From Candidatus Woesearchaeota archaeon (GTDB taxonomy: Archaea; Nanobdellota; Nanobdellia; Woesearchaeales; JAGVYF01): a stretch of 64,000 nucleotides of DNA. The translations under genes were made by a program, and so were the position numbers. The stretch is taken from NCBI GenBank assembly GCA_041650315.1, contig JBAZLJ010000001.1:141237-205236 (forward strand). Direction: 5' to 3'. A model generated the notes under the pieces. The model saw nothing but the letters and a program-made list of their open reading frames with translations, was not told where the DNA came from and did not search any database. Below, one piece after another: positions 3,596 to 56,436 of the stretch (the stretch's first letter is position 1; each line of letters opens with the position of its first letter).

Positions 3596-4918
3596 ATGCC
3601 TATGCAAATAGAAGTTGGAGATAAGGTGATTGTTAAGTCTAAGAATGGCTCACATGAAGGAATCTATATGCCTTCTGCGAACAAAGACGTTGAAGTAATC
3701 AAGCTGGATTCTGGCTACAATATAGGCATTGACAAGGAGAATGTCACTGAAATTAAAGTTGTGGCTAAGGATAAAGAGCATTTTTCTGTTAAAGTGGATA
3801 AACCTGCGATAAATCCTACTTTACCTTTTGTTTCAATTCTTCATACTGGCGGAACAATCGCTTCTAAGGTAGATTATCAAACTGGCGGAACTGTATCAAG
3901 GTTTACACCAGAAGAATTGCTTGCGATGTTCCCTGAACTCAAACAATATGCGAATATCCGTAGCAGATTGATCAAGAACATGTGGTCGCAGGATATGAGG
4001 TTTGAGCATTACAATCTTATCGCGAAAGAAGTTGAGAAAGAATTGAAGGCGGGCGCCAAAGGTGTGATAGTCACGCAGGGGACTGATACAATGCATTATA
4101 CAAGCGCAGGACTCGCGTTTGTTCTTGAGGGTCTTTCTTCTCCGGTTATCTTGGTTGGCGCGCAACGTAGTTCTGACCGAGGAAGCTCTGACGCTTATAT
4201 GAATTTGATAAATGCGGTATATTTCATTGCGCATTCTGATTTCGGCGAAGTCGGAATATGCATGCATGAGAATATGGATGACAATAATTGCCTGATACTT
4301 CCGGCTACAAAATCGCGCAAGATGCACACTTCGCGTAGAGACGCATTCCGTCCAATCAATACTTTGCCATGGGCGCGCGTGAATTATGCTGGCAAAGAAA
4401 TAACTTATTTGAAGAATGATTATCATAAAGCGGAATCGAATGGTTCTGCTAATAGTAAATTAACACTTAAATTATTCAAAGAGGATATTAAAGTCGCGAT
4501 ACTGAAGCAGACAACAAATATGTATGCTGAACAATTCCTTTCGTACAAAGGTTATTCTGGTTTGGTCATTGAGTCGACTGGTCTTGGCTGTCTTCCGATA
4601 ACTGAAAAAGATGAATCAACTTCTGAATCTGGCAAGATATTCGACGCCGTGAAAACGCTTATCAAAAATAAAGTGGTTGTCGTTGAAGCACCGCAGACAA
4701 TCTACGGACGTCTTGTTTTAAATGTTTATTCAGATCAGCGTCAGGCGCAGGAGATCGGTGTTGTCGGTTGTTTCTCTGACATGACTCCTGAAACTACTTT
4801 CATAAAATTAGCATGGCTGCTCTCGAATCATAATCACGATAAGGCAAAAGAATTACTTTTACAGAATCTGCGCGGTGAAATCACTGAGCAGACTGATCCG
4901 AATACTTTTTTGTATTGA
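3596..4918 (+). CDS. gatD: Glutamyl-tRNA(Gln) amidotransferase subunit D (asparaginase-like domain)
   Basis: 440 aa; HTGGTIASK asparaginase threonine motif, GatD N-terminal domain; TATA box ~20 nt upstream (leaderless). Confidence 0.9.
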   Translation: MPMQIEVGDKVIVKSKNGSHEGIYMPSANKDVEVIKLDSGYNIGIDKENVTEIKVVAKDKEHFSVKVDKPAINPTLPFVSILHTGGTIASKVDYQTGGTVSRFTPEELLAMFPELKQYANIRSRLIKNMWSQDMRFEHYNLIAKEVEKELKAGAKGVIVTQGTDTMHYTSAGLAFVLEGLSSPVILVGAQRSSDRGSSDAYMNLINAVYFIAHSDFGEVGICMHENMDDNNCLILPATKSRKMHTSRRDAFRPINTLPWARVNYAGKEITYLKNDYHKAESNGSANSKLTLKLFKEDIKVAILKQTTNMYAEQFLSYKGYSGLVIESTGLGCLPITEKDESTSESGKIFDAVKTLIKNKVVVVEAPQTIYGRLVLNVYSDQRQAQEIGVVGCFSDMTPETTFIKLAWLLSNHNHDKAKELLLQNLRGEITEQTDPNTFLY

Positions 4919-8462: not shown

Positions 8463-11312
8463 ATGGCTGAAAAGAAAAAGAAGGATAGGAAGTCTGCTAA
8501 CTCACCGGCAACATTGATAGATATTATTGAAAAAGAGAGTTTAACTGCAAAATCACAATTTAATTCTACTGCATCTGAAGGTGAACAAGTTTCTTTAGAG
8601 CAAAGAGCGACGACTTCTATATTAGAGATAGGTGACCTGGCCATAGGCACGAAAGTATTCAACCCCGACATATTGAAAGGATTAGGCTATTTCCTTGAAT
8701 CAAATGGTTATGATAAAAAAATAAAGCAAGTGATTATCGCTGGTGGTCTGAAACCGGCTATTCCTTTATTCTGGTCAGTACGTTATGGAGATTTGATGAG
8801 ATTTTTAGGCAATGATCCCGAAAGGAATGATTATGGTGAAGTCGGACGTGTCATTGAAGAATGCAAGGATCTTGTAGACGAGCTTAAGAAGTATGCTGAA
8901 AAATATTGGAAAGGAAAAGTATCCACCCCAAAAGAAGCAGAAGATATGGTCCAGAGGTATATGACTGAATTCTTCAATAAGTTGCCTGGCGCAAGAATCG
9001 ATTACTATCATGGTGATGAAGACAAGCTAAATATGAGAATGGCTGAAGAGATGGAAAGGCAGCGTATGCATGAGCAGAGAAAAGCAGAAGCTGAAGCTCA
9101 AAAAGAAAAAATTAGCCAAATGAAAGGAACATTAGATGATCTTGTTTCATCGAATACAGAATTGGAAAGAGAGAAGTTATATCATGCGCAGCTCAAGACT
9201 GTGCTTTCAGGAATATCTGTTGGATTGCAAGGACTCAATGATGATTCACAGAAGAAAGATTATATCATGAAATGGTTGAAGACTCCTGCTAATCGTAGCA
9301 CTATTCCACACGGCGAGAAAGGCAATGTGGAAGATATGCTCAATCTAACTCATCATACTGTGGATGAAGTGCAAGCGCAGATGGCAGAGCAGATTGTTGA
9401 AATTGATAAGCGTCTTATGGAGATAGACGCTGAAGCTGTCGCTAATACTGATGCGATGAATAAAGGTCAAGCTGAGATTGCTGATCTTGAAGCGAGGAAA
9501 GCTTCATTGGAAAGACCTTTGGAGAAGTTAGCGCATCTTACTGGGCAGTATTCAACCGCGCCTGGGGAAGAAGAGTTTATTTTCAAAATGGTAAAAGATG
9601 CATATAACGGCAGGCTTTATGACTTGTTCCAAGGATTGAATTTCCACGTGCACACTAGTTCAAAAGCAGATGTTGAGCTTGATTCCGGCGTAAGCACCAA
9701 GGCAAAAATTGCTGGCGAAGATGTAGGCAAAGCCGGACAGATTTATGAGATGGACGGAGAATTTAGCGCTCACGAGGTCGAATGCGGCGGTCAGAAATTG
9801 CTTATCGCAGTCATGCACAATATGAATCGTTCCAGCAATAGCGCTGGTTTGAATGATATTGAATTGATAGCTTTGGAGAATTCTTATCTTGAGAAAATGG
9901 CTGCTAATTACAAATCAAAGATGGGCAAAGTCCCAGACATATTCATAACTCAGCATGGCGCTGGCGGACTTAGGGTAAAAGCATTACCCAAGAAAAGAGA
10001 TGAAGTCAGCGAAGTCGGCTCGACAGAACGCGCGCCTATTCCTGAGATATGTATGGCAGTCAAGATTCCAGGTCTTGAAGACCTAGTTAAATTGCAGATT
10101 ATGAGGGACAAAGGTTTGAAAACACCTTCTACAATCAGGCAATCTAAAAAATTGAATGCTTCTGGCGCAACTATCCATACAGTGTTGGAAGATGGTTCGC
10201 ATGTAATCGAATATGTTGATTCAAGCTATCTTGCTGAAATCGGAGAATCTCTGACTCAGTTGGAAGGCATGGATAAGAAATCTGAAGAGTATAAGACATT
10301 GAAACAATCGCTTGATTCAAAAGTTTTGTTATCTAAACAGACTATTCGTAAGTCTTTGATTGCAGGAGATCTGCACGTAGGTGCGGGTAATCTGCCTGAC
10401 AAACCTTCTAATTACGAATATCTTGAGATGATGAAAAATTATGTTTTGTTGAATTATGTCTGGACTCAGAATGATCGTGCAGCATTGAGCGAAGTTATTA
10501 ATGGGGATCTTCCAAACATTCAAAGCCATTATAGTGAATGGGGCGATACTCCTGCAGCATTCGAACAGAAGCTTCAGAAAACTCTTGATGAAAGGATGGC
10601 TGCGATGGATGATTTATCTGTGAATAAGCAGAATAAAGGATTGAAAGAATTAGTGCATGATATCGCTAAAGAAGCAATCGATGCTTATAGAACAAGACCT
10701 ATCGCAAGCATAAGTCTGCAGATGGATGAAGCTGTCGCTCGTTTGAAACAGATATTCACTGACGTCCTTGGCGCAGGCGGAGAGCTTGTATTCGTTTCTG
10801 GAAATCACCCTAACAAGATTCCGGGCTATGATGAAGCAAAAGAACTTCGACGTGCGGTTCTTGGTTTGCAAGAGCAATACAAGGATCAAGTCAGGATTGT
10901 TGAAGGGCAAAGTTCAGGTCTTGGCGGTTCAGGCGTCATCAAAGACAAAGATGGCAAGAAAACATACTTCTGTCACGTACCACCAAGAGGCGGAAAAGAT
11001 TCAGTAGTCTCTTCAATGAAGAAAGCTCTTGGAACGGCTAATGATGCAGGACAATTCGTGCTATATCATGTCCATCAAGGAGAATGCGGTTATGCAGATG
11101 GCACAGCATATACAATCCCTCCTGGATTGCAAAATGCTTTGTATCCTGATGTGGCGGGTTATTTCTCAACCATACCTGGTTTCATGATGCATTATGGGTT
11201 GGTCGGAGAGAATACCGGCGTATATCACGCATGGCATTTCGTGCTAGGCAATACTTTGTTAAAGCATTATCCTGAGAATATCGCGAATGTGGGTTCTTCG
11301 AAACCCAATTAA
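8463..11312 (+). CDS. 949-aa protein: Lys-rich N-terminus, long central coiled-coil, C-terminal calcineurin-like metallophosphoesterase-like domain
   Basis: SD-like GGGAGG 8 nt upstream. Coiled-coil heptads ~aa 190-350 (EEMERQRMHEQRKAEAEAQKEK...). C-terminal motifs IAGDLHVGAGN (GDxHG-like), VINGDLPN (GD), VSGNHPNK (GNH), LYHVHQGE (HxH) appear in the order expected for an MPP fold. Confidence 0.6.
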   Translation: MAEKKKKDRKSANSPATLIDIIEKESLTAKSQFNSTASEGEQVSLEQRATTSILEIGDLAIGTKVFNPDILKGLGYFLESNGYDKKIKQVIIAGGLKPAIPLFWSVRYGDLMRFLGNDPERNDYGEVGRVIEECKDLVDELKKYAEKYWKGKVSTPKEAEDMVQRYMTEFFNKLPGARIDYYHGDEDKLNMRMAEEMERQRMHEQRKAEAEAQKEKISQMKGTLDDLVSSNTELEREKLYHAQLKTVLSGISVGLQGLNDDSQKKDYIMKWLKTPANRSTIPHGEKGNVEDMLNLTHHTVDEVQAQMAEQIVEIDKRLMEIDAEAVANTDAMNKGQAEIADLEARKASLERPLEKLAHLTGQYSTAPGEEEFIFKMVKDAYNGRLYDLFQGLNFHVHTSSKADVELDSGVSTKAKIAGEDVGKAGQIYEMDGEFSAHEVECGGQKLLIAVMHNMNRSSNSAGLNDIELIALENSYLEKMAANYKSKMGKVPDIFITQHGAGGLRVKALPKKRDEVSEVGSTERAPIPEICMAVKIPGLEDLVKLQIMRDKGLKTPSTIRQSKKLNASGATIHTVLEDGSHVIEYVDSSYLAEIGESLTQLEGMDKKSEEYKTLKQSLDSKVLLSKQTIRKSLIAGDLHVGAGNLPDKPSNYEYLEMMKNYVLLNYVWTQNDRAALSEVINGDLPNIQSHYSEWGDTPAAFEQKLQKTLDERMAAMDDLSVNKQNKGLKELVHDIAKEAIDAYRTRPIASISLQMDEAVARLKQIFTDVLGAGGELVFVSGNHPNKIPGYDEAKELRRAVLGLQEQYKDQVRIVEGQSSGLGGSGVIKDKDGKKTYFCHVPPRGGKDSVVSSMKKALGTANDAGQFVLYHVHQGECGYADGTAYTIPPGLQNALYPDVAGYFSTIPGFMMHYGLVGENTGVYHAWHFVLGNTLLKHYPENIANVGSSKPN

Positions 11313-11372
11313 TTTTATTTTTTGTCTCTTTTTTATATATGTTTTTATAGGTGGGATGCCTAGCAATATTGC

Positions 11373-12530
11373 ATGAATCTGGAAAAGAGGATAGGTTCTT
11401 GCGTAAAATCTCTTGCTCTAGGTCTTGCTGTGTCTTTAGGAAGTATTTTTTATCCGGTTGATTCTCGTGCGGACGATGTTAAATCAGTTTCACCAGCTGT
11501 TACAACTACTGCTAATCAGAATGTTGAGCGATTGAATAGAATGGATATAGATAAGATTGAAGAGTTCGCCGCGGGAATAAAATATGTTCCGTTTGATAGA
11601 TGTCGACGTATTAAATTAGAATCAGATAAGATAGAGGATTCTAGAATTAAGGAATTGGAAGAGATATTGCGAATGTCTTATCTTTATACTGAGAAAACAA
11701 GTAATAATTATATTTTAAAAGATAAACAAAGATTCACAAAATTGATATATGATACTTCTAAAAAAATAGGTTATAAGAATTTTGATAAGATGTCTATAGC
11801 TGAATTCATCAGATGGAACGCAAATCTTGTGATGTATTGGCATTCTTATTATAATGAGATGTTGAAATCTCCTGAAATAGCTGCTAAAGTTGATGGGGCT
11901 CATTTAGACGAGCTGTTGTATGCCGTTAACGGCAAAAAGGGAAAGACTTTTTTGATCTGTCGGAATATAAGTCCTTTACTTCAGATGGTTTTTGATTGCA
12001 CTAAGGATATTAATCCAAATCTTAAGAATACTTATTGTATATCTGTGGTTAATCAGACGCATATGTGGAATCTTTTTGTAACATTGACTAAAAAAGGACC
12101 TTATGCGGTTTCTATAGATCCAACTTTAGGGGATAATACTATGGCACATATGCAAAGTCAATTAGATTTTTCTAGCGGCGCTCATCGTGAGTTATTGCGA
12201 GACAAAGGTTATGTGCATTTATTAGCTGCTAAAATCTATTGTAATGAAAATGGTTTAATTGAATTATTGAAACGTTTAGAATTACATCAAGATTTTACTG
12301 ATAAAAATAAAATAGAATTGAATCGTTTCAGAACAAGTTCGCAGAATTATCTTCTGGCGCAATCTTTGAATCGGACTAATGAGATTATACAATTTTTCCC
12401 GCAATTATATAAATCTCGTATTCCTTCGATAGATAAATACATAAAATCTAATTTTGATATGATTCATTATAAGGTGGTAAGTAATTTAATTACTTTAGCG
12501 AAAACTCAGAAAGAGGTTTTATTCTTTTAA
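11373..12530 (+). CDS. Secreted hypothetical protein with a signal peptide
   Basis: 385 aa; N-terminus MNLEKRIGSCVKSLALGLAVSLGSIFYPVDSRADD; AT-rich gene. Confidence 0.55.
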   Translation: MNLEKRIGSCVKSLALGLAVSLGSIFYPVDSRADDVKSVSPAVTTTANQNVERLNRMDIDKIEEFAAGIKYVPFDRCRRIKLESDKIEDSRIKELEEILRMSYLYTEKTSNNYILKDKQRFTKLIYDTSKKIGYKNFDKMSIAEFIRWNANLVMYWHSYYNEMLKSPEIAAKVDGAHLDELLYAVNGKKGKTFLICRNISPLLQMVFDCTKDINPNLKNTYCISVVNQTHMWNLFVTLTKKGPYAVSIDPTLGDNTMAHMQSQLDFSSGAHRELLRDKGYVHLLAAKIYCNENGLIELLKRLELHQDFTDKNKIELNRFRTSSQNYLLAQSLNRTNEIIQFFPQLYKSRIPSIDKYIKSNFDMIHYKVVSNLITLAKTQKEVLFF

Positions 12531-23587: not shown

Positions 23588-24001
23588 TTATAATCTATTT
23601 TTATATTTGATAATTAATTCACGTACGCCTAAAACTAAATCTTTTTCTAATATTTCGTCAATTGAGAAATAGCTTACCTTTTGTCCTTCATTTAAATTAA
23701 TCTCATGCAGTTCTGCATCAATCAATGCTTTAAATATGTAAATATCGATGTTATAATCCTTTTCTTGAATTCTTTGCGTATGTTGAATCTTTGTGACCAA
23801 ATCAACATTATAAATGTCAGTACCAATTTCTTCTCTAATTTCCCTGATCAATGCTTCTGTAGGATTCTCTCCTTCTTCAATCCCTCCGCCGAGTATTGAC
23901 CATTTATTAGGGTTGGGAATAGTTGGTTTATTATCTCGTAAGACGAATAGATATTTATCCAATTTTGGATTTTTCAGAAAAACTTTAGCACCAGGTAACA
24001 T
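23588..24001 (-). CDS. NUDIX hydrolase
   Basis: 137 aa; Nudix box GGGIEEGENPTEALIREIREEIG. Confidence 0.8.
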   Translation of the reverse strand: MLPGAKVFLKNPKLDKYLFVLRDNKPTIPNPNKWSILGGGIEEGENPTEALIREIREEIGTDIYNVDLVTKIQHTQRIQEKDYNIDIYIFKALIDAELHEINLNEGQKVSYFSIDEILEKDLVLGVRELIIKYKNRL

Positions 24002-24048
24002 ATTAGGAAATATTATAATTAGATATAAAAAGATGCCTAAATATAAAA

Positions 24049-24122
24049 AGGAGGTACTGGGATTTGAACCCAGAGGTTATCGGGTTGCAGCCGATTGCCT
24101 TACCGGATTTGGCGATACCTCC
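24049..24122 (-). tRNA. tRNA-Cys (anticodon GCA), discriminator U73
   Basis: Manual cloverleaf: acceptor GGAGGUA/UACCUCC, anticodon stem AUCGG/CCGAU, loop CUGCAAC (anticodon at 24086-24088), T-arm CUGGG-UUCAAAU-CCCAG. Confidence 0.85.
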
Positions 24123-24252
24123 AGCTTTTTGACTCCGCTGCGCTCCGCAAAAACCTGGGAAAACAACGCAAGTGGGGTATTACTACGTAAACCCCACGAA
24201 GAGTTAATTCTTCATATTTATAACGATTTATTGTCTTTGGTGAATATAAAAA
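24123..24252 (-). other. 130-nt GC-enriched spacer between two co-oriented tRNA genes with strong hairpins (possible small RNA / processed spacer)
   Basis: GUGGGGUUUACGUAGUAAUACCCCAC hairpin and a GCGGAGCGCAGCGGAG block; no TATA box within 40 nt upstream of tRNA-Cys. Confidence 0.3.
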
Positions 24253-24359
24253 ACGCACTCGGGAGGATTTGAACCCCCGATCTACAGCTTAGAAGGCTCT
24301 AGCGAAAAGGCAATTATTTACTGCCATTTTGTCGCCTTATCCAGGCTAGGCTACGAGTG
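24253..24359 (-). tRNA. Intron-containing tRNA, best read as tRNA-Arg (anticodon UCU); 32-nt intron at non-canonical position 29/30 (~24297-24328)
   Basis: Acceptor GCACUCG/CGAGUGC, D-arm GCCU/AGGC with GG18-19, T-arm GGGGG-UUCAAAU-CCUCC. Only removal of AAAUGGCAGUAAAUAAUUGCCUUUUCGCUAGA gives a perfect anticodon stem ACAGC/GCUGU with loop CUUCUAA (anticodon at 24290-24292). Own TATA box ~30 nt upstream. Confidence 0.6.
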
Positions 24360-24406
24360 CATATATAAACGAAAGAAATAAGCGATTTATAAATATAGCG
24401 GTAAAT

Positions 24407-25498
24407 CTAATCCAAGAACTTCTTTTTCTTGATCTTTTCAGGCAGATATGTATCTGAGATGAATGTGATACCTCTTGCGCTCATAGCCTGAATCTCGGCT
24501 TTTGCCTTGAAGTCTTTCATCTTCTTGAACTGTTTCTGCCATGCTGCATTGTCCTTAAACCAAGGATATTCTGACATCTGTTTAAGCCTGCTGATGTCAA
24601 CGTCTTTTAGTTTGATGAAATGTTTTTGAAGTCCGTAATCTTCAATATCTTCTGCCATGATGCCTAGGAATTTGGCTTCAGGTATAGCTAGTTTCTCTGA
24701 CATGTGAGCAAGACTGATGGAACCGAATTTCAATACTGAGTATATGTAGAAACCCCATGGATCAAAATCTGCAAGCACATAGATCGGGAGCTTGTGCTCT
24801 TTCGCTAATCTCTGGAGCAATCTTCTGATGCCTCTCGTAGTCTGGCCTTGAGATGTTACAATGATACAGTTCTGTTTCTTCCAGAATTTATCTTCATGAA
24901 GACGTTCCCAGACTGCCTGTTTCTCCATGTAAATCACGTAATCTGCTTTGACTTCTTTGAATTCGATATTTTCAACATTTGACGGGATTGACCAACCACC
25001 TGAACCTAGTTTTGACCAGTTGATTGTATCTTCTCCGTCTATGATTGTGACGTTTCCTGCAACTGAACCCATTTTGTTTGCGTTGATGTTCAATTCTTCC
25101 CTTGAGCAGTCTGTCATCAATTCTAGATCTTCCAATGATTTGTCTGATTCTGACTGATCGTCAACAATGTTAGCATTAGTGCCAGGTATATTCCTTTTGG
25201 CCATGTAGAACACATCCCTTAAGCTGGCGTGTTTGGATATCTCTAGGAGCTGTTTTGCGATTTTCGCTACCTCTAGCGTCTGCATGAATTTCTTCGCATG
25301 ACCGACATTGAAGAAACTTCTTTTAGCAAGGTTTTCGCCTAGCATCAATCTTTTCTTCTTTTCGTCAAATTGGACGTTTGATAATGCGCGCGTTCCGAAT
25401 TCTATTGTAGGATTTTTCGCGCTCTTTACATCTTTCAGTAGTCCTTTACCGAGTTTTTGCAATTCAGATAATGCTTTCTTTTCACTCATCTGAATCAC
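24407..25498 (-). CDS. top6A: DNA topoisomerase VI subunit A (Spo11-like)
   Basis: 363 aa; toprim motif YVLADFDPWGFYIY. Confidence 0.9.
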   Translation of the reverse strand: MIQMSEKKALSELQKLGKGLLKDVKSAKNPTIEFGTRALSNVQFDEKKKRLMLGENLAKRSFFNVGHAKKFMQTLEVAKIAKQLLEISKHASLRDVFYMAKRNIPGTNANIVDDQSESDKSLEDLELMTDCSREELNINANKMGSVAGNVTIIDGEDTINWSKLGSGGWSIPSNVENIEFKEVKADYVIYMEKQAVWERLHEDKFWKKQNCIIVTSQGQTTRGIRRLLQRLAKEHKLPIYVLADFDPWGFYIYSVLKFGSISLAHMSEKLAIPEAKFLGIMAEDIEDYGLQKHFIKLKDVDISRLKQMSEYPWFKDNAAWQKQFKKMKDFKAKAEIQAMSARGITFISDTYLPEKIKKKKFLD

Positions 25499-36153: not shown

Positions 36154-37335
36154 ATGTTCAATAGAAAAGCTCAGGAAGGCGGCGGATCTGCTGCTATTTT
36201 AGTCGCATTGATTGCATTGTTCATTCTCGTATATCTTTTATTCGTACCACCAAGCGTAAGGCTTGAGATATTAGAAGGAGATGGTACTGAAACTGATAGT
36301 TCTGATGATGAAGTCACTGTAAATGGAGCTGTACTATTGCGTGAGAATCCTGGTTCAGTTGTTGAAGAAGGAAGCACTTCTTTATCGCATAGCATGCCAT
36401 CATTGAACTTGTATACTAAAAGCGAAGGCAAAGTGCTTGAGAATCTAGGCGGAGTTGCGATTGCTCGTTCTGATTTCAGCTCAACTTTGAAAAGCTATCC
36501 TTTCACTATATCCAATCTAGGTAATGTCAATAATGTGATGTTGACTTTCAATGTAATCACTTCTGAAGGCAATTTGATAGTTAAATTGAATGGCGTTGAA
36601 ATATTGAATAAGCAAGTGACTGGTTCAGTTGAACCTATAGTCATTGCAAAAGGTTTGCTTAAAGAGAATAATCTGCTTGATTTTGATGTGACTTATCCAG
36701 GCTGGAGATTCTGGGCAAAGAATGATTATGAATTATCAGCTGTTGCTTTGCGAGCAGATGTCACTGACACCGAGCATAAGAAAGCTACAACGCAATTCTA
36801 TATCGATTCTGAAGAGAAATCTAGTCTCAGAAGCGCTTTATTATACTTCTTCCCTTATTGCGGAGCTAATGCTGATACTATGACTATGAAGATAAACGGC
36901 AATCAAGTATTCAGAGGAACTCCTCAATGCGGATACAGCAACAGGTTTGAATTATCGCCTGAGCAATTGCAGTCCGGAGAGAATAATGTAGAATTCGATA
37001 TTGCGGGCGGGTCATATACTATTACACAATTGAAAATCAATACTGAATTGAAAGCTAAGAAGAATACCATATATCATTTCGAAATAAGTGATAAGCAATA
37101 TGTGAATATCACTGATAGAGATTATGATGTGTATGTATCTCTTAAGTTCCCTTTGGATTATGAAAGAAGGGAAGGCAAGCTCTATATCAATTCTGATATA
37201 AAATCATATGATACATCTGATTCAATATTCCAGTACAAAATAACAGATTTCGTTAGGGAAGGATTCAACTCGGTCAGGATAGTGCCTGAAGCTTCCTATG
37301 AAATAGACGAAATTAAAGTCTGGCTCAAGAAGTGA
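36154..37335 (+). CDS. Membrane-anchored (N-terminal TM) beta-rich extracellular protein; first gene of a 5-gene surface locus
   Basis: 393 aa; SAAILVALIALFILVYLLFV TM; TATA plus GGTGAT SD upstream. Confidence 0.6.
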   Translation: MFNRKAQEGGGSAAILVALIALFILVYLLFVPPSVRLEILEGDGTETDSSDDEVTVNGAVLLRENPGSVVEEGSTSLSHSMPSLNLYTKSEGKVLENLGGVAIARSDFSSTLKSYPFTISNLGNVNNVMLTFNVITSEGNLIVKLNGVEILNKQVTGSVEPIVIAKGLLKENNLLDFDVTYPGWRFWAKNDYELSAVALRADVTDTEHKKATTQFYIDSEEKSSLRSALLYFFPYCGANADTMTMKINGNQVFRGTPQCGYSNRFELSPEQLQSGENNVEFDIAGGSYTITQLKINTELKAKKNTIYHFEISDKQYVNITDRDYDVYVSLKFPLDYERREGKLYINSDIKSYDTSDSIFQYKITDFVREGFNSVRIVPEASYEIDEIKVWLKK

Positions 37336-37363
37336 GCCTTTTCGCGATAAAAAAAGAGGTCGA

Positions 37364-40057
37364 GTGATGGCTGAAGAGAGCAAACTGAAGTCTTTGTTGA
37401 TCACCATAATCAATCTTATAGTAGCACCTTTCAAAGAGAAAAATATGGAGTTTGAGGTGCCTTTAACTGTTGCTCTTATCGCAGATCTCACTCCTTTTTT
37501 TAGTTTTATTTTTGGGATATCATTTTTAAAAGATTTATTCGGGTCTAGTTTCATCGCTTTCTTCCCTGATTATAATCAGATTATGTTTATGACAATATTG
37601 TTTTTTATCGCATGGGGATATTTTGGTGTTACTTATTCAATTTTGTTCTTTTTCAAATTTGTTCCTATTGTGTATATCTTTCCGATATTCACAACAATTA
37701 TCCTGACTAATTACCTCAATTCCATACAAGGCGAGGCATCTGATGCGGCTGGCAAATTCATCGGTATACTTGCTGGGGCGAAGAAGACTTATCCATTCTG
37801 GGCGATTGTTTTCAGAGTCATTGCCGGGATTATGCTTTGTGTGGTTGTTTTAGGCAATATGACAAATTCAGCGAATGTTCTGATGGGCAATTTGCCAGGT
37901 GTAATCGCGCAGCCTCTATATGAAAAAGCATTGCCTGAGTATCAGGCGCAGGTTATTACTTTGAGGCAGATGCTAGATCCTAGAACTGCTTATACTGCCG
38001 CAATTAACAGCATTAAGAAGACTGTTTCTTATCCAGTTACTTCAGTCAAATCGTGGTTCACTACACAAATCAATGTAGCGACTGGCGGATATTACATGGG
38101 TCAGGTCGATAAGTATGCCAATAAAGATCTTGGCGTTTATTTGCGTGAAGTGAAACCAACTGAAAGATGGTTCTATCTAGATGAATCCACTTATCAAGTT
38201 CCAGCTATCCAAATAATGGCGAGCGTTGAGGGTGCGGCGATTGATGTGGATGATTGCGAGCAATACTTGACCGAAGCTGAAACTGATTTTGAAATTAAGA
38301 AAAATCAGCTTACTGCTGAGCAGGAAAAAGCTTATTATGCAAACATATTGTATAAAAATAAAGGAGATTGCGAACTCAATCAAAAAGTCAAATTAGGTTG
38401 CGCAATCAGTAATAAAAGAATAAACGGCACAGTGAATCCTTCTACGATTTCTTTATTCGAAATACAGAATGGTTTTGCGATGCTTGAATGCAATTTTGAT
38501 AAGGCTAAACTTACAAAGCCTAGTTCTGAGCTTGTTGATATCACTGCAAATTTCCCCTTCGTCACAAAATCTTATTTGAAAACTTATTTCATGGATCTGA
38601 AAAGGTTCCGTGATATGAAACTTCAGAAACTTGATCCTTTGACCTATTATAAAATAACAGATACAAAACCTATTGCGGTTTATACCGGCGGTCCTGTTAT
38701 GATTGGGATTGGCATAAATGATGTGCTTCCTTTGACACTTATCACCGATATAGATTCTCCTGAACCAATTAGATCGTACAGCTTGGGTATAACCCTTGAT
38801 AATAAATGGACTGGCAAGATCGCTGAATTGATGGATATTGTAGTTGTGCTTCCACCACAACTTGAATTGAGATGTCCTCCTTATTTCGAAGCGGATCCTA
38901 TTGAAAGCAATAAATATATCTTGACTGATTTCAGCAAGAAGCAAGTAATAGCTGAGAAAGGGTTCAAAGAATCAAAGACCTATAATTGCAGGATACTGCC
39001 TAAAACAATTCTAGCTGCGCGTGAATTATTGAATAATGTTCCGTTAGCCACTAAGTATGTGCAAGTGACTGCATCCTATAAATATGAAATATCTGAGTCG
39101 ACTTCCATTACATTAAGGCAAGGTGATGGTATAAAATCTGATTTGAGTTCGGGTTGTACTGATACTTCTACACCTTGCGGGGATTATGACGGATGTTATT
39201 GCACGGAAGGATGTCCTGCAGGTAATTATTTGTCAGAAGTCAGTCGTGAGTATAATTGCAATGGAAAGTATGTGGCTATTCCTGAAGCTGTTATGACTAC
39301 TACGAGCGGTACTGGGACCGGAACGATTACTTCTGGCGAGAAACCTTATAGCTGGGATGCGGATACTACTGGTTTGAGTCCAGTATCTTCGATCACAGGA
39401 ACGACTGTGCCTAATGAACCTTCCTCTGGATTCAATTCTGCTCATGCTACAGAGTTTGCAGATGGGAGAACTTATGTCACTTCTTATTATACTCCAGTTA
39501 GAAGTGATTTTAGCGTTTGGTCTACTTTCAAACAAACAGCAGATTATAAGGATTATATGTACACAGATAGTAAAGGCAGAGAGTTATTGACTGATGCTTA
39601 CTTCACTAAAATAGGACGTGATAACTCCTTCAGATGGTGCGTAATTTCTCCGAAAGGATTCTATGAAGAAGTGCAATGCCAAGGTGAGGGTGTGGATAAT
39701 CAGAAAAAATTAGCTTATAGCTATGCGACAATCAGGATAGAGGATGAAACTGCTGGAGCTACTCCCTTATCCGGTACTGGTCTTTCCTATACCCCTAGAT
39801 ATACTTTGGCTGGACCAAGCAGCCTTCAAGGCAGAGAAATATACCTTTTCTTTGGCGTAAAGAGTTCTTGGAATGGATGTTATAAAGTTCAAGATACTGG
39901 AAGTGCAATCCAAGGCAATCATCTAGATCTTTTTAGAGGGTTTTCTAAAGAAACACATCCATCCCAATTCCCGAAAGCATATCTCTATCCTGGATGCGTA
40001 GCTGCATATGAAAAATTGAAAGCAGAACAAGCAGCTGCTGCGACGATAACACAATGA
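37364..40057 (+). CDS. Large polytopic membrane protein with Cys-rich extracellular region and C-terminal 3D/RlpA-like double-psi beta-barrel (DPBB) domain
   Basis: 897 aa; 4-5 N-terminal TM helices; CTDTSTPCGDYDGCYCTEGCPAGNY; C-terminal ...GREIYLFFG...NGCYKVQDTGSAIQGNHLDLFRGF (3D-domain DTG..I.G..iDlf signature). Confidence 0.65.
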   Translation: MMAEESKLKSLLITIINLIVAPFKEKNMEFEVPLTVALIADLTPFFSFIFGISFLKDLFGSSFIAFFPDYNQIMFMTILFFIAWGYFGVTYSILFFFKFVPIVYIFPIFTTIILTNYLNSIQGEASDAAGKFIGILAGAKKTYPFWAIVFRVIAGIMLCVVVLGNMTNSANVLMGNLPGVIAQPLYEKALPEYQAQVITLRQMLDPRTAYTAAINSIKKTVSYPVTSVKSWFTTQINVATGGYYMGQVDKYANKDLGVYLREVKPTERWFYLDESTYQVPAIQIMASVEGAAIDVDDCEQYLTEAETDFEIKKNQLTAEQEKAYYANILYKNKGDCELNQKVKLGCAISNKRINGTVNPSTISLFEIQNGFAMLECNFDKAKLTKPSSELVDITANFPFVTKSYLKTYFMDLKRFRDMKLQKLDPLTYYKITDTKPIAVYTGGPVMIGIGINDVLPLTLITDIDSPEPIRSYSLGITLDNKWTGKIAELMDIVVVLPPQLELRCPPYFEADPIESNKYILTDFSKKQVIAEKGFKESKTYNCRILPKTILAARELLNNVPLATKYVQVTASYKYEISESTSITLRQGDGIKSDLSSGCTDTSTPCGDYDGCYCTEGCPAGNYLSEVSREYNCNGKYVAIPEAVMTTTSGTGTGTITSGEKPYSWDADTTGLSPVSSITGTTVPNEPSSGFNSAHATEFADGRTYVTSYYTPVRSDFSVWSTFKQTADYKDYMYTDSKGRELLTDAYFTKIGRDNSFRWCVISPKGFYEEVQCQGEGVDNQKKLAYSYATIRIEDETAGATPLSGTGLSYTPRYTLAGPSSLQGREIYLFFGVKSSWNGCYKVQDTGSAIQGNHLDLFRGFSKETHPSQFPKAYLYPGCVAAYEKLKAEQAAAATITQ

Positions 40058-41031
40058 TCTACAAATATATAGCGATAATCTGTATCTTAATGTTCATATC
40101 TAGCTGTACTTCTACAAATCCTTCGTATATCGATATCAAGAAGATACGTACAGGCACTGACGGAATATCTATGGTGTTCCTTCCTCAGGGAGATATACCT
40201 ATGATGGAAGAAGAGAGCCGTACTGTTTCTGTGCAGTTGAAGAATGACGGCGCGTTCGATGTAGGGCATATGTATTTCCTGCTGGGCACTGAAAGCGATT
40301 ATGTGACTCTCGGAAAGACTTATTTCAACGGAGGAGAGGGTAAACAGGAAGACAAGCAAGGTCAGCTCACGACCTATCTGCCTGAGAATCTGTTCAAAGG
40401 CAAATCTTTGAAAACTGTTGTCGGTGATTATGCTGAATATGATGCGGAACTCACTACGAAAAAGATAACTCTTAGCAAATATCAAGACACTTTATTGAGC
40501 GCTATATTGTGCTATGAATATGGTACTGTAGCAGAAGATGAAGTGTGCATCCAGCCATCTGTTTCGGTGATCGGATTGCAAGCAGCATGCGTACCTAAAG
40601 ATTTGACTTTCTCTAGTCAAGGCGCGCCTCTTGTTGTGAATAAAGTCGAAGTGAAAAGCACATTGACAACTAACAAACAGATAAAGACCTTATTTAAAAT
40701 ATATTTCGAGAATAAAGGCATAGGCGATGTATTGAACTGGAATACCGGCAGATTGGTCTGTTCATCTAAACCTATGGGTGAAGAGAAGATATGGAATTAT
40801 TTCATAATGGCTGCTTTCCTTGGCGATAAGGAGATAGAATGCAGAGTGCCTAAGACTACAGTATTGGGAGATAGTTACTGGTTGGTAAGATTAAAGGGCG
40901 GGAAAGCTGAAGTCGTATGCGAATCGACAAGTCCTAGCGGAGTTGCTTATACAACGCCATTCACAGTCAAAGCATTTTATGATTATACACAGACATTGAC
41001 TAAGAAACTAACTATTGAACGTACTAGTTAG
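40054..41031 (+). CDS. Secreted lipobox-type protein, paralog 1 of 3
   Basis: 325 aa; signal peptide ending ...LMFISSCTST; shares C...FSSQGAPL...K..VK...K.L.KIYF.N.G.GDV with the next two genes. Confidence 0.6.
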   Translation: MIYKYIAIICILMFISSCTSTNPSYIDIKKIRTGTDGISMVFLPQGDIPMMEEESRTVSVQLKNDGAFDVGHMYFLLGTESDYVTLGKTYFNGGEGKQEDKQGQLTTYLPENLFKGKSLKTVVGDYAEYDAELTTKKITLSKYQDTLLSAILCYEYGTVAEDEVCIQPSVSVIGLQAACVPKDLTFSSQGAPLVVNKVEVKSTLTTNKQIKTLFKIYFENKGIGDVLNWNTGRLVCSSKPMGEEKIWNYFIMAAFLGDKEIECRVPKTTVLGDSYWLVRLKGGKAEVVCESTSPSGVAYTTPFTVKAFYDYTQTLTKKLTIERTS

Positions 41032-41089
41032 CAAAATATTTATATACAGCAATTTATATAATATATAGTATCGAAAAAGAGATGATAGC

Positions 41090-42304
41090 ATGAAAGTACC
41101 TAAACTATTGGCAGTATTATCGATTCTTATAGTCATTTTCAGTTCTGGATGCACAAGTTCCACAACACCTAATCTCGATGAAGAGATATATAGGGGCACT
41201 AGAGCATTGACAATGAATTTTTTGCAGGATGTGCCGCCTACTGAGACTTTTGCTAGCACAGGTGATGAGTATGAGATGGCTATCGAATTGAAGAATGAAG
41301 GCACTTATCCAGTATACGGCAAGATTTATTTCTCAGGTTTTGATCCTAACATAATCAGTTTCTCTAAACTAGGAATGGATCAAGGTTATTCTTTCCCATC
41401 ATCAAATTGCGGTTTTAAAGAGATAATTCCAAGATCTAAATTGAATCCTCCTGGCGGAGCTTGCGTTGAAGAATTCAAAGGCAAACTTAATCTTGATTCA
41501 ATCACTGATTCATATTCAGCGAATATTTTCGCTCAGGCAGTCTATAAATATATAACAGATGCTAGCATTGTCATGTGCGTAGATCCTGACGTGTATCACG
41601 TATCACCTGCGCAAAGAGCTTGCACAATGAGCGCGTTCTCATCAGGTTCCGGACAAGGGGCGCCTCTCGGAATTACTAAGATAGAACCGACTGCCATAGG
41701 TGGCGGCCAGATACTTTATAGAATTTATATCCAGAACATGGGCGAAGGAGAAGTTGTCGACTATATGAAAGCGCCTTATGAGCTGAAACCTAGCGATGTA
41801 GGTAAAGTTAGATACAGAATAGGAACGCCTGCGAATACAAGAACGGGTATTACGGTATCTGCTAACGGTGGATCAGTGTTTGTAGGCAATGCAATTGCTG
41901 ATATAACTGGCAGAGCTATCGGATTGTCTTATACTGATTCTAATTTCAGGATAAATTTCAATCCTAAGTCAAACTATGCATATTCTGAGGATGTAATCAG
42001 ATTGAACAACGGCCAAGGAGTAATCACTAAGGTCATCGATTACAGCGGAAATGCTTATGCATTCCAGACTCCTCTGCAGATAACATTGGAATATGGATAT
42101 ATGCATGCGGTCCAGAAGAATATAGAGATAGTCAATATCGATCAATATAATTCTGCATACGGCGCCGGTGGTATCAGATTCGTTTATGATAAGAACGGCA
42201 AGAGAGTAGAATTGAATCCAGACGGCTCTGTGAGATATAGGGATGATGATTTCCAGATAGATCTCCCTTCAGATACATTGGATCTGAATAATCTTTTCAA
42301 ATAA
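41090..42304 (+). CDS. Secreted lipobox-type protein, paralog 2 of 3
   Basis: 404 aa; SP ...VIFSSGCTSS; motif CTMSAFSSGSGQGAPLGITKIE...ILYRIYIQNMGEGEV. Confidence 0.6.
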   Translation: MKVPKLLAVLSILIVIFSSGCTSSTTPNLDEEIYRGTRALTMNFLQDVPPTETFASTGDEYEMAIELKNEGTYPVYGKIYFSGFDPNIISFSKLGMDQGYSFPSSNCGFKEIIPRSKLNPPGGACVEEFKGKLNLDSITDSYSANIFAQAVYKYITDASIVMCVDPDVYHVSPAQRACTMSAFSSGSGQGAPLGITKIEPTAIGGGQILYRIYIQNMGEGEVVDYMKAPYELKPSDVGKVRYRIGTPANTRTGITVSANGGSVFVGNAIADITGRAIGLSYTDSNFRINFNPKSNYAYSEDVIRLNNGQGVITKVIDYSGNAYAFQTPLQITLEYGYMHAVQKNIEIVNIDQYNSAYGAGGIRFVYDKNGKRVELNPDGSVRYRDDDFQIDLPSDTLDLNNLFK

Positions 42305-42316
42305 GGAGGTATCATA

Positions 42317-43285
42317 ATGAATAAAATAATCACATTAATTGTTATTGCGATGATGGTGTGCATGTCAGGATGCACCGGTTCTAAAACGCCTACTAAAGCA
42401 GCAGTCACGCCTTTCATTGGCGGAAGCGATGCTTTGAAAGTAAGCTTTGTCGAAGGAACTCCACCTGCACAAATATATGACTCAGGCAGTTCAGCGTTTG
42501 CTATCGGTCTTAAATTGGATAATGTAGGTGAGCATACTGTATTAGCTACTGATGGTTATGTGGAGATTCTTGGTTTGAATGCGCAAGACTTTGGTCTTGG
42601 TTCACAAGTTGATTTGAAAAAATCTTTTGTCTCTGATATCAGAGGCGCTAAAAAGAATCTTGACGGCACCACACTTGAAGGCGATTCAGTCTATATGGAT
42701 TTCTCGGATATGAAATATCTTCCAGATCTAAAAGGAGATGTTGAATTCAAGTTCCGTGCTAATCTATGTTATGATTATGTGACGCAGACAAGTTCAAAGA
42801 TTTGCTTGAACAAGAATCCTTTAGCAGGTCTTGGAGAAGCAATTTGCAAAGTTTCTGCTGATAAAACAGTCTATAATTCAGGCGGCCCTATTCAAATTGT
42901 GAAAGTCAAGGAAAGCCCTCTAGGCAATAACAAAATTCAATTGCTTTTCGAGATTGGACATAAAGGTTCTGCAAACAATCTGTTCTATAAAATGGGCACT
43001 GCTTGCGATGATGCATTGACAAATACAGACAGATATAAAGTGCTTGTGAAAGTCACATCTGATGTGAATGGTGCAACTGCGCAATGTTCAGGTCTTGAAT
43101 CTGCAGTTAGCGGGTCTGAAGGCTATGTCACATTGTTCGGCGGCAAGAACAGAGCAATTACTTGCGTGCTTGACTTAGCGGCTGTTGATAGTGTCTACGA
43201 GGACTTATTCAATGTCGATCTGTATTACAGATATAATCAATTCCTTGATAAGACAATAGAAATACAGGATACTGGCAGCAGTTAA
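42317..43285 (+). CDS. Secreted lipobox-type protein, paralog 3 of 3
   Basis: 322 aa; SP ...VCMSGCTGS; motif CKVSADKTVYNSGGPIQIVKVKE...IQLLFEIGHKGSANN. Confidence 0.6.
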   Translation: MNKIITLIVIAMMVCMSGCTGSKTPTKAAVTPFIGGSDALKVSFVEGTPPAQIYDSGSSAFAIGLKLDNVGEHTVLATDGYVEILGLNAQDFGLGSQVDLKKSFVSDIRGAKKNLDGTTLEGDSVYMDFSDMKYLPDLKGDVEFKFRANLCYDYVTQTSSKICLNKNPLAGLGEAICKVSADKTVYNSGGPIQIVKVKESPLGNNKIQLLFEIGHKGSANNLFYKMGTACDDALTNTDRYKVLVKVTSDVNGATAQCSGLESAVSGSEGYVTLFGGKNRAITCVLDLAAVDSVYEDLFNVDLYYRYNQFLDKTIEIQDTGSS

Positions 43286-48319: not shown

Positions 48320-49693
48320 ATGCTTATAAAACGACTTTTTGTTTTCGAGTGCATGAGATGGTGGTTATTGGTTTTATTGGTTTTAATGCCGTTTGCTTGC
48401 GCTGAGACTTATTTCTCAGAAGTGATGTATAATCCATTGGGATCTGATACTGGTTTTGAATGGGTTGAGGTTTATAGTAATGATTCTTTAGAGATTACTT
48501 CTTGTAAGTTTTTGGAAGCTGGTGTGAATCACGGCATTACTTTGAGTTCTAATGGTACTTCATCTTATTTTGTGATTGCGGACGTGCCTTCAAAGTTCTT
48601 GGGGAACTATAGCTATAATGGCACTTTGTATGATTCAGCATTCTCTTTGTCTAATACTGGCGAGGCTTTGAGTTTTGTTTGTGATGGCATTACTATCGCT
48701 TTTGTGAATTATACGGATATTGCTCTGGAAGGCGATACTTTGCAGTTCATTTCATCTGAGTGGGTTTCGGGTGTTGCATCTCCGGGTTATTTGGGCTTAA
48801 AGACTGAAGTACCAAACGAAACATTGCCGGAAGCTGTGAACGAATCAGTTTCTTTCATTAAGATTGATAAGGTTGATGCGAATGTAACGTTTGGTTCAGT
48901 TCTGGATGTGAAGTTCACTGCACATAAAGGCGATACTTCGAAGTATGCCGTTTATGTGTGGGTGGATGGCGCGAGCGACAAATCGCAGGTAAATATGTAT
49001 ACCAAACTTTCAGATGGCACTTTCACTATCCCTGTGCAATTGCGCCCTAATTGCGATGGCCGCTACGATGAAGGCGATTATACTTTACGAATATCTGGTC
49101 TTGGTGTTGAAGTGAATGCTTCTGTGCATGTGTCTGGAATCAATACTAAGCTGTGCAAGGTTGTTGAGAAGACTGTGACGAAGACAACCGGTTCTTCTTG
49201 TCCCGCTACTTCTAGCTTCGAGTATTCTCTTGTAGGTTATCCTACAGCAGTTCTTGTCGGTTTGGAATTCAAGACGTTGGTTAAGATTGTGAATAATTAC
49301 GATTATGAGATTCCTGTGAAAGTCTGGAGTTATGTGTATCGCGGTTCGAAGACGTATTCCGGCGAACGCGAAGAGAACATGATTTCTTTCGATCTCGATT
49401 CTGGCGATGAGAAGATTATCGAATTGAAGAATACTGTTGAAGATGCTTTATCTGGCGATTACAAGCTTAAAGTCTTAATCAATAAGAAGGATCAGAAGAC
49501 TAATCAGGAACTGACTTCGGACATTTCTATTTTCGCAATACCTGTCGCGGAGAATAAGACTTGCGCAGTGTGTCCGACGTGTTCTTCTGCGGAAAAATCG
49601 GTTTCGAAAGAGATTGTCATGTCTGGCGCGAAAGCGGGCTTTGGTTATGAGAATGTCGCAAGCGATGTTATTTCTGATGGAATTGTGTACTAG
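48320..49693 (+). CDS. Secreted protein with N-terminal lamin-tail domain (LTD); in-frame TAG followed by a C-terminal TM anchor
   Basis: 457 aa; signal peptide then FSEVMYNPLGSDTGFEWVEVYSND (LTD motif); the frame is open past the TAG for 33 more codons (49694-49795). Confidence 0.6.
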   Translation: MLIKRLFVFECMRWWLLVLLVLMPFACAETYFSEVMYNPLGSDTGFEWVEVYSNDSLEITSCKFLEAGVNHGITLSSNGTSSYFVIADVPSKFLGNYSYNGTLYDSAFSLSNTGEALSFVCDGITIAFVNYTDIALEGDTLQFISSEWVSGVASPGYLGLKTEVPNETLPEAVNESVSFIKIDKVDANVTFGSVLDVKFTAHKGDTSKYAVYVWVDGASDKSQVNMYTKLSDGTFTIPVQLRPNCDGRYDEGDYTLRISGLGVEVNASVHVSGINTKLCKVVEKTVTKTTGSSCPATSSFEYSLVGYPTAVLVGLEFKTLVKIVNNYDYEIPVKVWSYVYRGSKTYSGEREENMISFDLDSGDEKIIELKNTVEDALSGDYKLKVLINKKDQKTNQELTSDISIFAIPVAENKTCAVCPTCSSAEKSVSKEIVMSGAKAGFGYENVASDVISDGIVY

Positions 49694-52442: not shown

Positions 52443-53357
52443 ATGGATAATTCATTAAAATTCATTTCGATTTCTTTAGCGGTTCTTTTTGTTGTGATTA
52501 TAGGTTTTGGTTCTCCTTTGGTGGAGAATACCATTGTAGGCGATGCAATTCGAAATCAATTTGAGAGTAATCGTATTGCGCTTAACTGGCACCAATGCAC
52601 AGAAGGTTATAAGTGCATTTCAAAAAATACTTTAGTTTATCAGTCTGAAAATTGCAGGCATACCAAAACAACTTATTGCAGATATGGGTGTGAAATGGGC
52701 GTGTGTAAAACTGCACCTAATTTCATACCGCCATATGATTGCGCTGATACTGATGATGGCGCGGATAAATTCTATATGAAAGGAACTGTCACTGGTAGCA
52801 TTCCAAGCATAGTAACAACACTCACTGATCTATGTGAGAATCCTGATACTAAAGAATCTTGCGAAGGCAGCGTGGATTGTCCTCTTCTGGAGTTTTCATG
52901 CACAAGAACATGGAACAAATATACTGGTTATATAGTCAAAGAAAGGTATACATGCCCTTACGGATGCAAAGAAGGAGCTTGCTTGGCTGGATGTCCTATC
53001 GAGTATGTCAAAGCAGTATGTCCTGACGGAATGATTGAGAATCCAACATACGATGAAAATGGTTGCCATATAACTGGCGAATGCATACAAATGCCTGCCT
53101 GCACTGACTCCGATCTAGGTCAAGATCATTATTTGATGGGGATTAACTCTGGCTATTTCATCGGAGAAGATACTACTTTTGATAGGTCTTCTGCAGTGTT
53201 CCAACAATTCAATGATTCATGCAGTGGTATAAATCTAAATACATTGAAAGAGTTCTATTGCACAAATGATGGGTATCTTACCTTTAATTCTTTCACCTGC
53301 CCAGGCAGATGCGTTAATGGCGCTTGCATAGAACCAGTGTTAGAAACAACGAACTGA
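52443..53357 (+). CDS. Cys-rich secreted/membrane-anchored protein with repeated CxxGCxxGxC modules
   Basis: 304 aa; N-terminal TM; CRYGCEMGVCK, CPYGCKEGACL, CPGRCVNGACI. Confidence 0.5.
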   Translation: MDNSLKFISISLAVLFVVIIGFGSPLVENTIVGDAIRNQFESNRIALNWHQCTEGYKCISKNTLVYQSENCRHTKTTYCRYGCEMGVCKTAPNFIPPYDCADTDDGADKFYMKGTVTGSIPSIVTTLTDLCENPDTKESCEGSVDCPLLEFSCTRTWNKYTGYIVKERYTCPYGCKEGACLAGCPIEYVKAVCPDGMIENPTYDENGCHITGECIQMPACTDSDLGQDHYLMGINSGYFIGEDTTFDRSSAVFQQFNDSCSGINLNTLKEFYCTNDGYLTFNSFTCPGRCVNGACIEPVLETTN

Positions 53358-56351: not shown

Positions 56352-56436
56352 TCTCTCTAGGTAGTAATCCGTTGTATATAAAGTTTGACTGGCTTTTGTC
56401 AACAAATTTAAATATAATCGCGCTAAATCTAGAATT

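Follow-up and report, generated by a model that had tools for sequence, protein, structure and literature searches.

The window, by which we mean the whole 64,000-nucleotide stretch of DNA analysed here, very probably carries a functional tRNA-Arg(UCU) gene of Woesearchaeota type in which a predicted 32-nt, protein-spliced archaeal intron lies between nucleotides 28 and 29, that is, within the 5' strand of the anticodon stem. The gene is a well-supported example of a known phenomenon and leaves the understanding of archaeal tRNA splicing unchanged. Its main value is practical, as ARAGORN and Rfam miss the gene, and ARAGORN run with the intron option (-i) mis-calls it as a tRNA-Ala.

Gene structure and intron position

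Read from 24360 to 24254 on the minus strand, the gene begins GCACUCG UA GCCU AGCCUGGAUA AGGC G AC, continues with the intron AAAAUGGCAGUAAAUAAUUGCCUUUUCGCUAG, and ends AGC CUUCUAA GCUGU AGAUC GGGGG UUCAAAU CCUCC CGAGUGC G (Table 1). The acceptor stem, GCACUCG/CGAGUGC, is paired at all seven positions, the D arm (GCCU/AGGC) and the T arm (GGGGG-UUCAAAU-CCUCC) are intact, the variable loop has 5 nt, and the CCA end is not encoded. A20 and C35, known arginine identity elements in other systems, are both present. A first-pass annotation of this DNA had placed the gene at 24253-24359 with a length of 106 nt; the gene is real, but this span is one base off and does not match the true extent on the minus strand.

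Table 1. Positions of the tRNA-Arg(UCU) gene, its intron and splice motif, and associated features (window coordinates unless a relative is named).
Feature	Position	Strand	Remarks
tRNA-Arg(UCU) precursor gene	24254..24360	-	107 nt; G1 at 24360, discriminator G73 at 24254
5' exon, standard nt 1-28, from the 5' half of the acceptor stem through the D arm and G26 to A27 and C28	24331..24360	-	
Predicted 32-nt intron AAAAUGGCAGUAAAUAAUUGCCUUUUCGCUAG, 28/29 register	24299..24330	-	sole deletion solution; sole strict-BHB solution; missing from the L001 ortholog
Same intron in the equivalent 29/30 register	24298-24329	-	
3' exon, standard nt 29-73	24254..24298	-	
Anticodon UCU	24291..24293	-	
Archaeal TATA-box-like element TTTATAAA	24386..24393	-	26-33 nt upstream of G1; read from sequence
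Oligo-T (T6) directly after the discriminator	24248..24253	-	read from sequence
H 5' strand, G23 G24 C25 G26 (GGCG; D-stem 3' strand + nt 26)	24333..24336	-	pairs with CGCU at 24301-24304
5' splice-site bulge A27 C28|A	24330..24332	-	predicted cut between 24331 and 24330
Inner helix h' 5' strand AAAUGGCA	24322..24329	-	
Inner helix h' 3' strand UGCCUUUU	24305..24312	-	
H 3' strand, intron CGCU	24301..24304	-	
3' splice-site bulge A G|A29	24298..24300	-	predicted cut between 24299 and 24298; without outer helix
Neighbouring tRNA-Cys(GCA)	24049..24122	-	62.2 bits; intron-less; same small tRNA cassette
Insert-bearing orthologs, L002-L005	~3880-4000	-	
Insert-bearing orthologs, L006-L008	~3830-3980		

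The TATA-like element TTTATAAA presumably acts as the promoter of the gene, and the T6 run is likely an archaeal terminator. When the upstream regions of homologs were compared, an A/T box was found at a similar distance in most orthologs. Most of the insert-bearing relatives L009-L021 have a TATA-like box about 25-35 nt ahead of the first tRNA nucleotide, a spacing that would leave a very short 5' leader or none. Such short leaders are reminiscent of Nanoarchaeum, for which leaderless tRNA transcription has been described.

To locate the intron, every deletion of 28-36 nt that falls between the D and T stems was scored by how well it restores a standard anticodon arm of 17 nt. This exhaustive scan gave one mature product only with five of five Watson-Crick anticodon-stem pairs, U33 and R37, namely that of a 32-nt deletion, with stem ACAGC/GCUGU, loop CUUCUAA and anticodon UCU. 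The predicted junction reads ...GGCGAC|AGCCUUCU..., and ARAGORN calls the spliced 75-mer tRNA-Arg(tct). [quoted passage not shown] The tRNA-Arg(UCU) identity, the stem and loop of the spliced arm, and the absence of a valid 37/38 arm had all been proposed in the first-pass annotation and are borne out. Scoring the deletions by ARAGORN itself proved too permissive (526 of 3146 deletions received some call) and was replaced by the anticodon-arm score.

For the window gene taken alone, the 28/29 and 29/30 registers are equivalent because an A is repeated at both junctions. The geometry of the bulge-helix-bulge (BHB) motif and seven homologs whose intron starts with U instead of A, so that 29/30 is impossible there, together fix the predicted cut at 28/29. 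The earlier assignment to 29/30 at about 24297-24328 was right about the 32-nt length and about the 5' strand of the anticodon stem; its coordinates are one base off, and its register is refined to 28/29. A true 29/30 variant does occur in one relative, L012, where helix H of the motif has moved by one base; its insert ends in U, which makes 29/30 the only possible register.

Other kinds of interrupted tRNA gene do not fit. The catalytic core of group I introns exceeds about 200 nt; the insert here is 32 nt long and has no Rfam intron match at the gathering threshold or at E<=10, and it is not a group I self-splicing intron. Nor is this a split or permuted gene, whose halves would lie at separate loci or in permuted order: here the two exons follow each other in the normal order in a single stretch of 107 nt.

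The splice motif

The motif that we searched for has a 4-bp helix between two 3-nt bulges, one on either strand, and an inner helix no shorter than 2 bp; the cuts fall after the second nucleotide of each bulge. Applied strictly to the whole window gene, this rule returned a single solution, with H = GGCG/CGCU and bulges AC|A and AG|A; the inner helix h' consists of 3 bp, a U.U mismatch and a further 4 bp. The outer helix h has 0 bp in the window gene, where a strict hBHBh' motif needs at least 2 bp, and with the outer helix missing the motif is a relaxed HBh' rather than a strict hBHBh'. It has the features of the relaxed class, namely H, h' and one closed bulge, with the second cut site beside H in a bulge or loop that is left unclosed, and in a constrained fold its 3' site lies within a 4x4 internal loop. 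The HBh' nomenclature reportedly goes back to Marck and Grosjean in 2003. A BHB-type motif at both junctions and an intron hairpin GGCA...UGCC had been anticipated beforehand; the hairpin is real, and the motif is present as a 4-bp H with two 3-nt bulges in the relaxed form just described.

Two other arrangements were considered and rejected. If H were GCGA/UCGC, cut at CA|A and UA|G, the product of the window gene would be wrong, being two nucleotides too long. An outer helix formed by exon-exon pairing, AAGGC/GCCUU, cannot coexist with H, and no central helix of 4 bp would remain.

Since H uses D-stem nucleotides 23-25, the precursor is unable to form the D stem and the motif together. The unconstrained minimum free energy (MFE) fold, at -38.1 kcal/mol, does not show helix H. 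Under constraint, the BHB conformer reached -36.0 kcal/mol and the intron-retaining cloverleaf -28.2 kcal/mol, which makes the BHB conformer less stable than the MFE fold by about 2 kcal/mol and more stable than the cloverleaf by about 8 kcal/mol. In these folding models, the splice-competent conformation is thermodynamically accessible and is preferred to a mature-like fold with the intron still in place.

Conservation among related genomes

Relatives were taken from contigs that encode orthologs of top6A and on which local synteny is kept. The closest long syntenic relative, L001 (top6A 91% identical), has an intron-less gene whose anticodon arm, GACAGCCUUCUAAGCUGU, is exactly the predicted spliced product. 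The L001 gene matches the spliced window gene at 68 of 75 positions, both differences in the acceptor stem are compensated on the other strand, and the gene scores 65.8 bits against the Rfam tRNA model.

A scan of species-representative genomes, in which GCGAC and GCCUUCUAAGCUGU had to be separated by any insert of 20-50 nt, added 13 genomes under the names Woesearchaeota, Nanoarchaeota or Nanobdellati, each with an insert of 20-35 nt at the same site. The inserts differ in sequence and have a common architecture: GCGAC, one nucleotide, a hairpin, CGYN, and RRA (AUA in L021). All 14 precursors, that of the window included, have a motif that fits the rule and yields exactly GCGACAGCCUUCUAAGCUGU. 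In 13 of them, H is formed by nucleotides 23-26 and the intron CGYN, the bulges are A27 C28|N and R-R|A29 (A-U|A29 in L021), and the position is 28/29; the outer helix is 0 bp in 12 of these 13 and 1 bp in L019. The remaining one, L012, has H = GCGA/UCGC and a 3-bp outer helix, and thus a full hBHBh' motif. The cut rule tracks the junction between the 28/29 set and L012, which argues that the motif, and not an accident of sequence, defines the intron.

Covariation was counted on gapless constructs from 13 genomes. In these, 96.6% of cells are paired, compared with 34-50% in controls that shift the 3' partners by 1-3 columns; both sides have changed in six of nine pairs, and none of 500 shuffles reached the observed score. 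Pair 23 of H, for example, occurs as G.U, G-C, C-G and A-U, and in h' all five positions nearest the bulge covary.

These comparisons bear on whether the gene might be a decaying pseudogene, that is, a tRNA-Arg gene disabled by the random insertion of 32 bp, with no removal of the insert. The silence of standard finders and the lack of the insert in the closest long relative would both agree with decay. Against it, an insert occupies the same site in 14 species-level genomes, with compensatory changes that keep the splice motif, and a random insert gives a BHB with the correct product in only about 0.1% of shuffles (18-32 of 20,000 insert shuffles in our counts, about 0.1-0.16%). In addition, the four arms are all intact, as are the promoter-like TATA box and the T-run, and a decoder is needed: AGA (45%) and AGG (23%) together make up 68% of the arginine codons in the 24 confidently annotated genes of the window. 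As AGA must be read by this tRNA, codon usage suggests that the gene is almost certainly functional, and we regard decay as very unlikely.

It is also conceivable that the insert stays in the mature RNA as an extra arm or has some other role, such as a regulatory hairpin or an internal terminator. The intron hairpin (24305-24325, minus strand) is followed by UUUU, and by U6 in the introns of L011 and L015, which fits a terminator-like pattern. Oligo-T runs can terminate archaeal transcription, and the intron might cause some premature termination within the pre-tRNA. A retained 32-nt arm inside the anticodon stem is, however, incompatible with known tRNA geometry, and the conserved features are exactly those that the tRNA-splicing endonuclease EndA needs (H with its 4 bp, the two 3-nt bulges, and the register of the cuts), and the length and sequence of the hairpin drift freely between genomes. 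We thus consider retention extremely unlikely and removal by splicing the far better account of the insert.

Other relatives carry inserts elsewhere in the same gene. In L002-L005 (top6A 83%) the anticodon arm is intact and a 45-nt insert with a full hBHBh' motif lies at 59/60, and L006-L008 (top6A 75%) carry one insert in the D-loop and another at 37/38. Three are present in L012 (D-loop, 29/30 and T-loop), L017 combines 28/29 with a T-loop insert of about 78 nt, and L019 combines the D-loop with 28/29; L009 is also among the orthologs with inserts at other positions. The T-loop inserts all end ...GAAAGU|CCC (GAAAUU|CCC in L002). For the multi-insert genes of L006, L012, L017 and L019, an iterative solver using the strict rule and a 75-nt cloverleaf filter gave no solution; relaxed motifs may underlie the D-loop inserts or the others, or the filter may have been overly strict. 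No tRNA lies downstream in L022 (top6A 89%), and the contig of L023, with 98% DNA identity, ends inside the tRNA-Cys, before the tRNA-Arg site.

The 14 orthologous precursors form a clean comparative set for a covarying, relaxed HBh' motif built on D-stem nucleotides. The set also displays presence and absence of the intron between close relatives and differing positions in the same gene, and could be used to test how the DPANN splicing endonuclease recognises relaxed substrates.

A few names in the comparison stand out. Four genomes with a tRNA-Arg of Woesearchaeota type (L014, L019, L020 and L021) are titled 'uncultured Methanosarcinales archaeon', and one top6A homolog (P0088) bears the name 'Candidatus Binatia bacterium'; the probable reason is that metagenome-assembled genomes (MAGs) or contigs have been taxonomically mislabelled.

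Detection by tRNA finders

Neither ARAGORN with default settings nor Rfam at its gathering threshold calls the window gene, and both report only the neighbouring tRNA-Cys(GCA). The Rfam tRNA model still gives no match to it at E<=10, and does report two homologs with shorter inserts. ARAGORN, which the first-pass annotation had suggested as a check, supports the proposed identity once the intron is removed but not on the unspliced gene: run with -i on 24253-24361, it returns a tRNA-Ala(UGC) with a 12-nt anticodon-loop intron and a variable arm of about 30 nt, the only alternative solution to emerge and a structurally much worse one.

Taken literally, that call would make the locus a tRNA-Ala gene. 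It is forced, as ARAGORN allows introns in the anticodon loop only. The resulting anticodon stem has three A-U pairs, one C-G pair and one mismatch, and the perfect ACAGC/CUUCUAA/GCUGU arm is demoted to a variable arm. tRNA-Ala is a class I tRNA and lacks a long variable arm. Moreover, the intron-less ortholog is a tRNA-Arg(UCU), and the deletion scan contained no competing solution with five of five pairs. The chance that the tRNA-Ala call is correct therefore appears negligible, and the locus is best read as tRNA-Arg(UCU).

tRNAscan-SE 2.0 looks for non-canonical introns by default, with BHB models trained on Crenarchaeota, Euryarchaeota and Thaumarchaeota (PMC8450103). Given this training set, DPANN genes of the present type may be under-annotated in MAGs. 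As the tRNA decodes AGA/AGG, and so 68% of the arginine codons in the window, a genome in which its gene is missed would seem to lack an essential decoder.

A strict scan for T arms and acceptor stems found no further hidden tRNA genes in the window. A 152-aa ORF (23814-24272, plus strand) runs antisense across the tRNA-Cys and into the 3' end of the tRNA-Arg; it is almost certainly spurious, and where the tRNA goes uncalled, gene callers could report this ORF instead.

Proposed processing and relation to known introns

By analogy with established archaeal tRNA splicing, we infer the following pathway. The gene would be transcribed from its own TATA-box promoter, and transcription would terminate at the T6 run. 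The precursor would not adopt a cloverleaf; instead, G23-G26 would pair with the intron CGCU to form the 4-bp H, and the AAAUGGCA/UGCCUUUU hairpin would form h', so that A27-C28|A and A-G|A29 would each form a 3-nt bulge, one on either strand. EndA would then cut after the second nucleotide of each bulge, leaving 2',3'-cyclic phosphate and 5'-OH ends, and an RtcB-type ligase would join C28 to A29. The exons would refold into the cloverleaf with the anticodon stem ACAGC/GCUGU, and CCA would be added afterwards. Because the 3' bulge has no closing outer helix, the precursor would be a relaxed HBh' substrate and would need an EndA of broad specificity.

Much of this has precedents. Non-canonical archaeal tRNA introns, HBh' and hBH motifs, multi-intron genes, and insertion sites including 29/30 and 30/31 are already documented (PMC4090602). 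Relaxed motifs need EndA variants with specific loops, and DPANN lineages, including those with an alpha4 EndA carrying the L3 loop, have been associated with increased disruption of tRNA genes, in a survey that included one Woesearchaeota genome (PMC5829648).

The closest likeness is to the non-canonical HBh' introns of Thermoproteales, Nanoarchaeota and ARMAN (PMC4090602, PMC5829648). Like them, the predicted intron is short, protein-spliced and outside 37/38; it has a 4-bp central helix, 3-nt bulges with cuts after the second bulge nucleotide, a well-formed h' and one unclosed bulge. Its precursor would likewise have to fold otherwise than as a cloverleaf, and orthologs of the same lineage carry several introns per gene. 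Two things set it apart, namely the DPANN host of Woesearchaeota type, a group represented in the literature searched by a single surveyed genome (PMC5829648), and the 28/29 register. The site examples given in the review include the adjacent 29/30 and 30/31 and end in 'etc.', without 28/29, in a list that is illustrative and not a full catalogue (PMC4090602), and 28/29 is not claimed here as a new intron position.

Two further systems are useful for comparison. The 29/30 split tRNA-Ala of Caldivirga maquilingensis (PMC4090602) also has its break in the 5' strand of the anticodon stem, and L012 falls at the same 29/30 site. In contrast to such 29/30 cases, which are trans-spliced split genes or crenarchaeal introns, the window gene has a contiguous cis-intron, belongs to a DPANN genome and is interrupted one base upstream. 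With the canonical 37/38 intron and its strict hBHBh' motif, the window intron is expected to share enzyme chemistry and BHB logic, and L006-L008 carry an insert at 37/38. Unlike in a 37/38 intron, however, the anticodon stem is unusable as an outer helix, and H is built from D-stem nucleotides, so that the D stem must open.

It is tempting to speculate further, with the caution that the following is tentative and in our judgement rather more likely wrong than right. Perhaps the 28/29 intron is old and clade-wide in Woesearchaeales tRNA-Arg(UCU) and was recently lost in some members, such as L001. Its obligatory pairing to D-stem nucleotides 23-26 may then turn splicing into a folding checkpoint, and the precursor may be processed by a DPANN alpha4 EndA with the L3 loop. 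The lineage might show a turnover of introns comparable to that of Thermoproteales and under-detected by tRNA finders. If so, the gene and its enzyme would offer a natural substrate/enzyme pair for relaxed-motif cleavage without crenarchaeal or ARMAN-type enzyme architectures, and the orthologs with an insert at 59/60, with D-loop or 37/38 inserts, or with three inserts together would reflect the same intron turnover.

Host and genomic neighbourhood

Genes of archaeal type surround the locus (RFC large subunit, Topo VI A and B, archaeal DnaG, Rio1, a KH protein, ValRS and CysRS). The Topo VI-A of the window had no exact sequence match, and its nearest homologs are named Woesearchaeota/Nanoarchaeota. 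Judged by gene content and these relatives, the host is an archaeon of DPANN, Woesearchaeota type; DPANN/Nanoarchaeota is among the lineages for which the first-pass annotation had named non-canonical introns as a hallmark.

Relative to top6A and RFC-L, a tRNA cassette of about 370 bp (~24028-24401, including the tRNA-Arg promoter) is inverted in comparison with L023 and L001. It is bracketed only by a weak 10-nt AT-rich inverted repeat (24018-24027 / 24402-24411), and the inversion could be either a real micro-inversion or an assembly artefact. In the window, a Nudix gene (23588-24001) lies between the tRNA-Cys and RFC-L; L001 lacks it.

Elsewhere in the window, five consecutive same-strand ORFs (36154-43285, plus strand; 393, 897, 325, 404 and 322 aa) are without a Pfam match, as are ORFs of 949, 385, 457 and 304 aa (8463-12530, 48320-49693 and 52443-53357, all on the plus strand). 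Neither EndA nor RtcB was found among the 49 window ORFs scanned. RtcA, the RNA 3'-terminal phosphate cyclase, and Trm1 are encoded at 55272-56405 (minus strand) and 53420-54412 (plus strand), respectively, about 30 kb from the tRNA. RtcA makes the cyclic-phosphate ends used by RtcB-type ligases. Trm1 is the N2,N2-dimethylguanosine-26 tRNA methyltransferase, and its target, G26, sits in helix H of the precursor.
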